Shown here: piece by piece, positions 157 through 3,029 of the stretch
Layout: every line of letters begins with the position of its first letter
How positions within the stretch are numbered: position 1 is the stretch's first letter
The notes under the pieces: model-generated
Databases searched by the model: none
What the model was told of the DNA's origin: nothing
Seen by the model: only the letters and a program-made list of their open reading frames with translations
Program-made: the position numbers and the translations under genes
Assembly: GCA_046563655.1 (NCBI GenBank)
Contig: CM102288.1
Location: forward strand, 2,542,001-2,606,000
Source: Yuukianura sp. NJ FZ-2021
Taxonomy: Eukaryota
Length of the DNA: 64,000 bases
Reading direction: 5' to 3'

Positions 157-3029
157 TTAAGATTTGATTTTGGGAAAGCCAGTTATTTGTTTCTTTTCTT
201 CTTTTCTCTTTTGGGCCATCACTTTCTTTCGCAGATGTTCCTTGTAGTCTAAAATTCCACTTTCCCATTTCGTTACAGTTCCTTTTTCACAAACCCAAAT
301 TTCGTTTGCCACCTAAACCCAAAAAATTGTTCAAAATTTTGATTTTCACAACACCAGTTTGAACGCAGTCAGCTTAAGAAATTGTTCTTTTTTCTCACCT
401 GAGAAATTAGACGAAAGTCGTGAGAAACAAGAACCATACCACCTTCAAAGTTTGCAATTGCATCGGCCAAGGCATCAATTGTTTCAATATCCAAATCTAT
501 CAATCACAAAGTTAAAATCAATTGCGTCAATTTGATTTTTTTTTAGTTTGTAAACTTACGATTCGTCGGTTCGTCCAGAAGGAGCAAGTGAGGAGCTTGT
601 TGTGATATCCAAGCAAAGACAACACGGCATCGTTGACCATCGGAGAGTTGACGAATAGGACTCACCTAGAAATGACATGCACCAGAAGTTTCAACATTAC
701 ATCTACATGCTGTTTGTGGTGAATTTGTTGACGTGACTGGCGTGATTAATGATTAAAGGAATGATTAATGATTCTCACCTGCTGTTTTCCTGACAGTCCG
801 TACCGTCCTACGATTCTTCTCATCTCTTCCCGTTCTTTAATTTCTGGGAAGCACTTCATCATGTAGTCGAGTGGTGAAAGATCCAAATCAAGAAGTTCAT
901 GGAGATGCTGATGGTATCGGCCGAAACGAAGATGAGAGTTCTTGCGGATCATTCCTTCAGTAGGGACAATCTACGAGAAACAAAACATATCAAGTGAACT
1001 GTATGGCAAACATTCTGCTGAATTACTAAATTGAACTTACGTCACCGTAGAGTAGTTTCAGCAGGGTACTTTTTCCAGCTCCGTTCGGACCGACAAGAGC
1101 CAACCTCGTATCCAAATCAATTCCGAATTCTAAGTTTTTGTAGATCCACGGAGACTTGTCATTGTACCGAAAACTGACATTTTGGACCATAATCACTGGA
1201 GGCGGAACTGAAACCAAGAAGTATACATCACAAATTAACTTTTTACTGAATGTTTCTGTTTGAGTTTAGACGTTCTTACTTGTGCCACATGATGGAAAAT
1301 AAAATGAAACAGTTTTATCAGCTGTGACTTTTTCGGCCAATCCACCGGCAACCATTTTGGCCAAAGTTTTCTCTTTGGACTGTGCCTGACGAGCCAATTT
1401 GGCGGATCCGTGTCCAAATCTAGCAATGTAGTTCTACACGACAACAAAAACCAGTAATTAGTACTAAAAAGTATTTCAATAAGCATTCAGCATCAGCATG
1501 CACCTAGACATTCTTTGTGTCTTGTCATGCAGAATCAGGTTCGCTTCGGGTGAGTTATGAACATTCGATCTCGAATTCAGTTCAAATGAAGGTCAACTGA
1601 ATAAATCCGAAAACTTATTGCAGTCGGCACATTCACTTCTTGAAGATCGAGACCGTATTCATCGGCCTCTTAGTTCATCATTTATGCACACACAACTACT
1701 TTTCATAACTACTAAAATTGAATCCATGTTTCCGTACCTTCATGTGAGCAATCTGATCTTGCTCCCAGTTGAACTGCTTCATTTGATTCTCCAGCAATTC
1801 CAGTCGAGTTTGAACGAATTGATCATAATTTCCCTAAGAAAGGAAAATTATTAGACTTTGTGAAATTTTCTGGTGCAGATTGAAGGTGACTTACTCCATA
1901 GTATTTCAGTTTTTTCTTGTCCAAGTGGATGATATTAGTACAAACTCCGTTCATGAAGTCCTGCGAATGGGAAATGATGACCAGGATTCGCTTGTAAGTT
2001 TTCAGTTCCTCCTCCAACCAGACACAGGCATCAAGATCCAGATGGTTGGTAGGTTCGTCCAATAGAAGAAGATGTGGGCTGACATACCTGAAAGAAAACG
2101 TGGACAATTAGCATTCAAGTTTACTTGGACATGGTAAGACAAAGCTAACGAATCTTACAATGCTTTGGCCAAGGCAATCCGCATTCGCCAACCTCCGCTG
2201 AAATCTTTGCATTTCTTCTGCTGCATCTCCTTAGTAAATCCAAGACCATGTAGAATTCGACCGGCTCTGACCTCAGCAGTATCTGCACTCATGTCATCCA
2301 AACGCTCATAAACTTCCATAAGCTGCTGCTGCGACTCGTCATCTGTAGCTTCAACCAGTTCTTCAGCCAATTTCTCCAGCCGTATCCTCTCCTCATCGAC
2401 TTCCATGACACAGGTAAGAGCAGACTTATCACTGGCAGGAATTTCACGAGTCAGATAGTAAATATCAATGATGTCTGGAATCGGGACTTCACGGTTTCCG
2501 ATAACAGAAAGTAAAGTTGACTTCCCAGCGCCATTGGCTCCGATCAAACCATAACGTCTTCCACAGTTGAGTTCAAGATGTGTGTCTTGTAACAGTTCAG
2601 TTCCGTGAAACGTTATTGAGAAATTATCAATCTTCACATCACGACTCCTCGGATGAATTCCCAAGACACCGGTACAGCCTCTCGCTTCTGCGCTGATCTT
2701 CGCTTCAAGGTCCAGCTTCATACATAGCAATTCTACAGTAAGTTCATCACGATTAGTTTGACGTAAAAAGAAGTGGAACTCCTAAGCAAGTAAAAGTAAG
2801 CGTAACTATGTTCGGAAAATTTACCTTCTGGACTGGCTCCCTGAGGTTCTGCAGATCCGTCTCTGCTGTGTCCATTACTAATGCCATTGGCCGTTCCATT
2901 TCCGTTGACCTGAGCTTGACCTTCCGTTTGATCTTCTTTTGTCGCCGCATTCTTTTGACCCGGTTTATTTTTCGCCTTGGCCGCTTGTTTCTTTTCGAGA
3001 TCTCGTTTCTTCTTTGCGTCAGACGGCAT
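157..3029 (-). CDS. ABCF2: ABC-F family ATPase ABCF2 (10 exons: 3029-2825, 2732-2159, 2087-1895, 1833-1738, 1433-1280, 1207-1041, 970-779, 665-560, 496-399, 312-157)
   Basis: N-terminus MPSDAKKKR; two ABC cassettes ([62 protein letters not shown]); no TM segments; all 9 introns GT-AG with compatible phases; TAA at 159-157. Confidence 0.96.
1483..1687 (-). ncRNA. Candidate intronic box C/D snoRNA/scaRNA in ABCF2 intron 4
   Basis: Sense to host: box C ATGATGA (1681-1675), terminal box D CTGA (1490-1487), flanking GCAT/ATGC terminal stem, internal CTGA (1538-1535), long internal hairpin; the intron (304 nt) is about 3x longer than the other ABCF2 introns. Confidence 0.7.

Follow-up and report, generated by a model that had tools for sequence, protein, structure and literature searches.

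Splicing in vitro depends on a small number of snRNA methylations, and that of U2 at G12 is one of them; it resists loss of Nopp140, according to the passages on which we draw. A guide has been assigned to it only of late, and the literature found describes this guide in vertebrates only. This guide is SNORD89 (HBII-289, Rfam family RF00578), which in yeast tests directs U2 Gm12 by way of a non-canonical box D', UUGC (yeast assay in PMC6984369). The excerpts further report a drop of 72% in Gm11 and of 37% in Gm12 upon SNORD89 knockdown, and SNORD89 chimeric peaks that span U2 0-22 and 0-24. They also describe vertebrate SNORD89 as containing CAB boxes.

Two other groups of box C/D RNAs are relevant here. 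The long C/D scaRNAs include human mgU2-47/SCARNA28, given as 189 nt in the excerpt, and U90, with further examples in Drosophila; in the same excerpts the Cajal-body signal of vertebrates consists of several G.U/U.G pairs in succession, and that of flies, the CAB, reads cgaGUUAnUg. The mgU6-53 guides (SNORD8 and SNORD9, RF00377) direct a known human methylation at U6 A53, and in the available part of a fly C/D table the only U6 guides are those for A47 and C68. This background, together with the mouse Snord89 sequence (supplementary file 3 of PMC11863803), was taken from passages of PMC11863803, PMC6984369 and PMC11014333 (including supplement rows), and from further passages of PMC8336889, PMC7960923, PMC4041459, PMC6298559, PMC5855946, PMC10557570, PMC4914119, PMC8522698 and PMC3884663. 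The literature searched, in which subscription journals are lightly covered, yielded neither an invertebrate U2-G12 guide nor an ABCF2-hosted snoRNA.

Here we describe an intron of Yuukianura sp. NJ FZ-2021 that in our judgement quite likely harbours the gene for a box C/D guide acting on U2 G12, which would correspond in function to vertebrate SNORD89 and is probably its orthologue.

The host intron and its box C/D frame

The window analysed is a stretch of 64 kb. On its minus strand lies a gene that we take to be ABCF2, a name given in a preliminary description of this DNA; our own check found an ABC-F-type layout, with one open 646-aa frame carrying two Walker A motifs and Pfam ABC_tran matches on two of the exons (Table 1). 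The preliminary description had singled out one oversized intron, and indeed the RNA-bearing intron has 304 nt and the remaining 8 of the 9 introns have 61-113 nt. A UACUAAU word within it resembles the branch-point consensus. Elsewhere in this gene, intron 1 (window 2733-2824) has two in-frame acceptors 30 nt apart, giving products of 646 or 636 aa, and also holds a UGAUGA word at ~2749-2744.

In host sense the RNA-bearing intron shows the frame of a box C/D guide, namely a box C close to the 5' end, a box D close to the 3' end and a terminal stem, all on the minus strand. A C...D pair with this 4-bp stem geometry occurs only once in the window, both strands included. The internal and terminal CUGA boxes named in the preliminary description are both present, but they belong to a set of four CUGA words (at 1580, 1538, 1496 and 1490). 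The frame for the proposed 205-nt RNA exists in full, but the length of this RNA is uncertain, because the stem that the 5' flank can form is longer with the internal CUGA than with the terminal one. Bases after the internal CUGA pair with this flank at 8 of 9 positions (duplex energy -6.5 kcal/mol) as compared with the 4-bp stem after the terminal CUGA (-4.0 kcal/mol). Position 1532 is a mismatch in the window and a pair in both other haplotypes (compared by hand), such that pairing of the internal-CUGA stem is kept there. An RNA of ~160-165 nt with the internal CUGA as its box D would match the SNORD89 layout directly. We keep a 205-nt form as something that may also occur, since the small 3' hairpin can still be folded in the other haplotypes and no listed change falls in the terminal box or stem.

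Table 1. Features of the host gene and of the putative guide RNA (window coordinates)
Feature	Position	Strand	Basis or remark
ABCF2-like host gene	157-3029	minus	10 exons, 646 aa; open spliced frame
Host intron 4	1434-1737	minus	304 nt, GT-AG; frame open across
Branch-point-like UACUAAU, host intron	1457-1463	minus	sequence
5' flank able to pair after either internal or terminal CUGA	1682-1690	minus	duplex energies
5' arm of 4-bp terminal stem	1684-1687	minus	sequence
Box C (AUGAUGA)	1675-1681	minus	sequence
Antisense element 1	1662-1673	minus	pairs U2 nt 9-20, 11 Watson-Crick + 1 G.U; predicted guide for G12 (and G11)
Long rod hairpin	1557-1662	minus	fold; 43 bp, UUCG loop 1611-1608; base holds D'/C'-like pair
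Putative degenerate box D' (GAAU)	1657-1660	minus	14 nt after box C; positional homology to Snord89 UUGC
Putative degenerate box C' (AUGUUCA)	1558-1564	minus	5/7 to RUGAUGA; opposite putative D'
Antisense element 2 (GAAGCGA)	1541-1547	minus	pairs U2 nt 2-8; cofold; 10 nt after C'
Internal CUGA	1535-1538	minus	true box D of ~160-165-nt RNA, or internal box of 205-nt RNA
Small 3' hairpin	1493-1533	minus	centroid; variable between haplotypes
Possible second guide (doubtful)	1492-1500	minus	9 bp (1 G.U) to U6 nt 50-58, D+5 on A53
Terminal box D (CUGA)	1487-1490	minus	sequence
3' arm of 4-bp terminal stem	1483-1486	minus	fold + sequence

The long hairpin, 106 nt in all, folds with -36.7 kcal/mol (z -4.59), a value equalled by 0 of 200 shuffles; the same count was obtained for the whole 205 nt at z -2.72. 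All five helices named in the preliminary description are present in both the MFE and the centroid structures of 1662-1557, and the second, small hairpin that it had placed before box D appears in the centroid. Its mention of many G-U pairs was overstated, as 6 of the 43 pairs are G-U and none of these are adjacent. The UUCG cap sits in the loop as described, but its closing pair is U-G and not the C-G of the extra-stable tetraloop.

We compared four of the six listed sequencing runs, three of DNA (X1, X2 and X3) and one of RNA, the latter covering pieces of host exons, not the intron, and thus having no bearing on expression. Among the differences listed, the three DNA runs show no substitution in 1533-1718; for the RNA the differences of X1 and X3 are fully accounted for, and one X2 difference lies beyond those listed. 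In X3, the most divergent run, differing sites number 0 of 154 within 1533-1687 and 9 of 144 in the intron sequence outside it (Fisher p 0.0013); with the flanks of the same intron as the only control, 2 of 83 sites differ and p is 0.12. Position 1645, which is unpaired in the model, lies between two X3 contigs and was excluded. Nearly all differences inside the RNA cluster in 1501-1532. The genomes compared are near-identical, hence they provide no covariation in the long hairpin.

Pairing with the U2 5' end and likeness to SNORD89

The target set consisted of the genome's own U1, U2, U4, U5, U6, 18S and 28S (10 snRNA and rRNA sequences). The 12-bp duplex between element 1 and U2 is the longest that the 205-nt RNA forms with any of these, and has an energy of -22.0 kcal/mol in comparison to -15.2 for the next best site. 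Downstream of C', element 2 provides a further complementarity, and the targets of the two elements are contiguous on U2, together covering nt 2-20. When the RNA was cofolded with its targets, U2 1-30 came out best of 630 target windows (-18.7 versus -13.6 kcal/mol), with both elements paired simultaneously and U2 2-20 held in a three-way junction. Duplex length alone is not decisive given the controls: of 3000 random 20-mers, 61 attain 12 bp with these targets, and shuffled versions of the 205 nt give a 12-bp duplex in 93 of 300 cases over snRNA and rRNA and in 12 of 300 for the snRNAs alone. The case for U2 therefore rests on position and homology. This locus is the only one in the 98.7-Mb genome at which box C is accompanied by the U2-guide match, and the sequence is single copy.

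The preliminary description had proposed an intron-encoded scaRNA or snoRNA, reading a GU-rich stem as a scaRNA hallmark. A box C/D guide for a spliceosomal RNA, with the 5' end of the genome's own U2 as its target, is well supported; the scaRNA argument is not, since neither known Cajal-body signal is present. A wobble stem of consecutive G.U/U.G pairs is missing from the apical tip of the hairpin, and the fly cgaGUUAnUg is missed by at least 3 positions everywhere in the RNA, its best windows (3-4 mismatches) being no better than unrelated parts. The RNA shares with the long C/D scaRNAs a length of ~190-205 nt, a major and a side hairpin and an snRNA target, but differs from them in these signals and in the U2 site addressed.

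A closer relative is SNORD89. Both RNAs have the order box C, an element to U2 9-19/20, a non-canonical D', a hairpin, C', element 2 and CUGA. The spacer from box C to D' is exactly 14 nt in both the RNA described here and mouse Snord89, with 10 of the 14 letters identical (compared by hand), and it contains the antisense to the region around U2 G11/G12. Over U2 nt 9-19 the guides differ at a single position, the one opposite nt 16, where an A:U pair in vertebrates is a G:C pair here. Element 2 has the same 7 letters, 10 nt after C' here and 11 nt after it in mouse Snord89, and they also occur in the human ASO. The presence of element 2 in SNORD89 is our own reading of the mouse and human sequences; it does not appear in the passages available and may already be drawn in published SNORD89:U2 figures.

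The two RNAs also differ. The insert from D' to C' is 33 nt in SNORD89 and 92 nt here, D' reads UUGC there and GAAU here, and C' is weaker here. Element 2 stands 8 nt from CUGA in SNORD89 as opposed to 2 nt (or 50 nt) here, where, unlike SNORD89, the RNA may carry a 3' tail of 50 nt. The hosts are also distinct, namely RNF149 for human SNORD89 and ABCF2 here.

Searches with family models gave no support for a formal assignment. The RF00578 covariance model had 0 matches on the own genome at E up to 10, the gathering score of 41 bits not being reached. Infernal/Rfam, which the preliminary description had suggested as a check, returned no real match on the locus: the whole window at gathering score gave none, 1400-1760 gave 4 weak matches of which none is real, the 5' part of the RNA gave 7 weak matches and the 3' part 0, and window positions 1-30000 gave 0 at E 0.1. 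As it fails the Rfam threshold we do not file the RNA under RF00578, and consider it likely that it works as SNORD89 does. A homologue search of metagenome contigs, with a gap range of 90-120 nt that places vertebrate-length forms outside it, gave at least 119 loci (120 matches examined), none homologue-like; only 2 of those listed extend the U2 match, and those listed lie mostly in GC-rich DNA. In viral contigs 0 of 50 matches had element 2. Among the matches listed from both sources, none is an intermediate between SNORD89 and the RNA described here. A scan for bacterial promoters and terminators, irrelevant to a eukaryote, found nothing.

Other pairings of the RNA were considered and set aside. 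Element 2 has an 8-nt match by eye to the U6 5' stem-loop, but the +5 position is mismatched; a 10-bp match to U5 and matches of 9-10 bp to 28S fall within the hairpin and do not exceed chance expectation. The 28S sequences themselves are of two types (L008 and L009; 3926 versus 3770 nt) that differ at at least 1 position.

The genome also carries divergent U2 copies. One variant gene (L004:1501-1696; G000:C1:6552414) has an altered stem-loop I in which pairing with element 2 is kept and pairing with element 1 is weakened (-10.0 versus -22.0 kcal/mol); given this weaker pairing, its product may escape the guide. In another copy (L005:1501-1689; G000:C8:14675034), ~4.4 kb from the intact U2 gene L002, the first ~35 bases are replaced by unrelated sequence.

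The D'/C' register and competing readings

With the putative D' assigned from position only, a 12-bp U2 element, that is one of at least 10 nt, lies upstream of it. GAAU shares 0 of 4 letters with CUGA, and both departures of the putative C' from consensus form Watson-Crick pairs with D' letters in the MFE structure. Taking GAAU as D', the +5 rule leads to U2 G12, so that this register predicts Gm12, possibly together with Gm11. With the overlapping AUGA (1662-1659) as D' the target would be C14, and with the internal CUGA it would be G4; both words are nearer the box D consensus than GAAU is. On these grounds the RNA might pair with the U2 5' end but methylate C14 or G4, or only chaperone U2 folding. 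We think this unlikely, as the table passage available lists neither C14 nor G4 among the methylated positions of human U2, the spacer equals that of Snord89 in the G12 register only, and a C'-like partner matches at 5 of 7 positions in the G12 register versus 3 of 7 in the AUGA register (compared by hand).

More radically, the intron could be an ordinary one that contains an inverted repeat, its boxes and U2 matches being due to chance or relics of a decayed guide. The outcome of the Rfam scans would fit such a functionless locus, as would the fact that duplexes of 12 bp are not unusual when all targets are counted. We nevertheless hold it to be very unlikely in view of the two ordered elements in common with Snord89, the co-change of guide and U2 at nt 16, the hairpin z score and the module free of listed substitutions in three runs. 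Even less probable, in our estimation, is a hairpin that serves mainly as a microRNA-like precursor with the C/D frame only stabilising it. The hairpin is indeed long, rod-like and invariant and has a weak match to Rfam mir-4791, but with 20.4 bits (cut-off 100) and an E value of 0.21 this match is no better than chance, and the U2 elements lie outside the hairpin in a way that mirrors Snord89.

Returning to the reading as a U2 G12 guide, we favour a model in which the RNA would be expressed from the spliced ABCF2 intron, cut out of it and, in keeping with established snoRNP biology, bound by the C/D core proteins. The two elements flanking the long hairpin would then clamp the U2 5' end at nt 9-20 and nt 2-8, and in the resulting three-way junction stem-loop I would be opened along 19 contiguous bases. 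The degenerate D'/C' pair at the hairpin base would place fibrillarin for 2'-O-methylation of G12, and G11 may be methylated too, as it is in mouse cells. Element 2 would supply extra pairing and not a second methylation.

The 3' tail, U6 and 18S

Just ahead of the terminal box D are bases that can pair with U6 around A53, with which the AGC triad begins, and 1500-1487 matches the mouse Snord8 guide and box at 12 of 14 letters with +5 on A53. With independent letters, a match of this kind arises in 26 of 400000 cases when A53 is the site and in 108 of 400000 when any one of 8 U6 sites is admitted. In X3, the change at 1501 extends the pairing to ten. A single 205-nt guide could methylate both catalytic partners of the spliceosome, U2 at G12 through its SNORD89-type module and U6 at A53 through the element before the terminal box D, with alternative 3' ends (~160 and 205 nt) switching the U6 activity. 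We regard this dual role as possible and rather doubtful. It is weakened by several features. Unlike in mgU6-53, the pairing spans 9 bp, has a wobble adjoining the target, precedes the terminal box and not D', and is partly buried inside a hairpin. The word that matches U6 is a 6-nt tandem repeat with 6 occurrences in the genome. The same bases, 1492-1500, have a match of equal length (9 bp) to 18S 1489-1497, and in the window the tail pairs better with 18S (-18.9 kcal/mol) than with U6 (-15.3 kcal/mol). Finally, the genome holds two dedicated mgU6-53 genes.

The energies just given are also what speaks for the RNA being mainly an rRNA guide, whose bases before the terminal box D would pair with 18S ~1489-1501 in a 13-bp duplex including wobbles, and whose target would be A1492. 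Only 9 bp of this duplex remain if at most one wobble is admitted, however, and the extension is lost in the X3 haplotype (compared by hand). The available part of a fly 18S table has no site between 1621 and 1806, the interval in which the equivalent of A1492 presumably falls by the numbering that we assume. An rRNA guide would moreover leave the U2 elements unexplained, and altogether we find this reading highly improbable.

The two dedicated genes are near-identical and of the mgU6-53/SNORD8 type (L151:1501-1600, G000:C8:9451157; L152, G000:C3:8745431, minus strand). They have perfect antisense around U6 A53 and a CCGA D' box, and score 29.1 and 27.3 bits in Rfam, below the cut-off of 36. 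The RF00377 model gave 5 matches in the genome, the locus described here not being among them. A pattern search for U6-53 guides based on CUGA gave 13 matches and missed the true genes, which use CCGA; the Rfam model found those. As to U6 itself (L006 and L007), the main gene has an unusual, short 5' stem-loop; the second copy, which may be a pseudogene, is altered at several positions of the conserved 3' half.

Possible implications for SNORD89

If the proposed function is correct, an invertebrate counterpart in which guide and target have changed together would date the SNORD89 guide to before the vertebrate lineage. The essential parts of SNORD89 would then be two elements that open U2 stem-loop I, a spacer of fixed length and a D' whose letters can vary. 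Element 2 offers a testable account of how SNORD89 gains access to G11 and G12 within a stable stem. The insert, longer by 59 nt, coincides with the lack of an Rfam hit, and indicates how such guides may be missed. The signature of two motifs could be used to find guides of this kind in flies and other animals.
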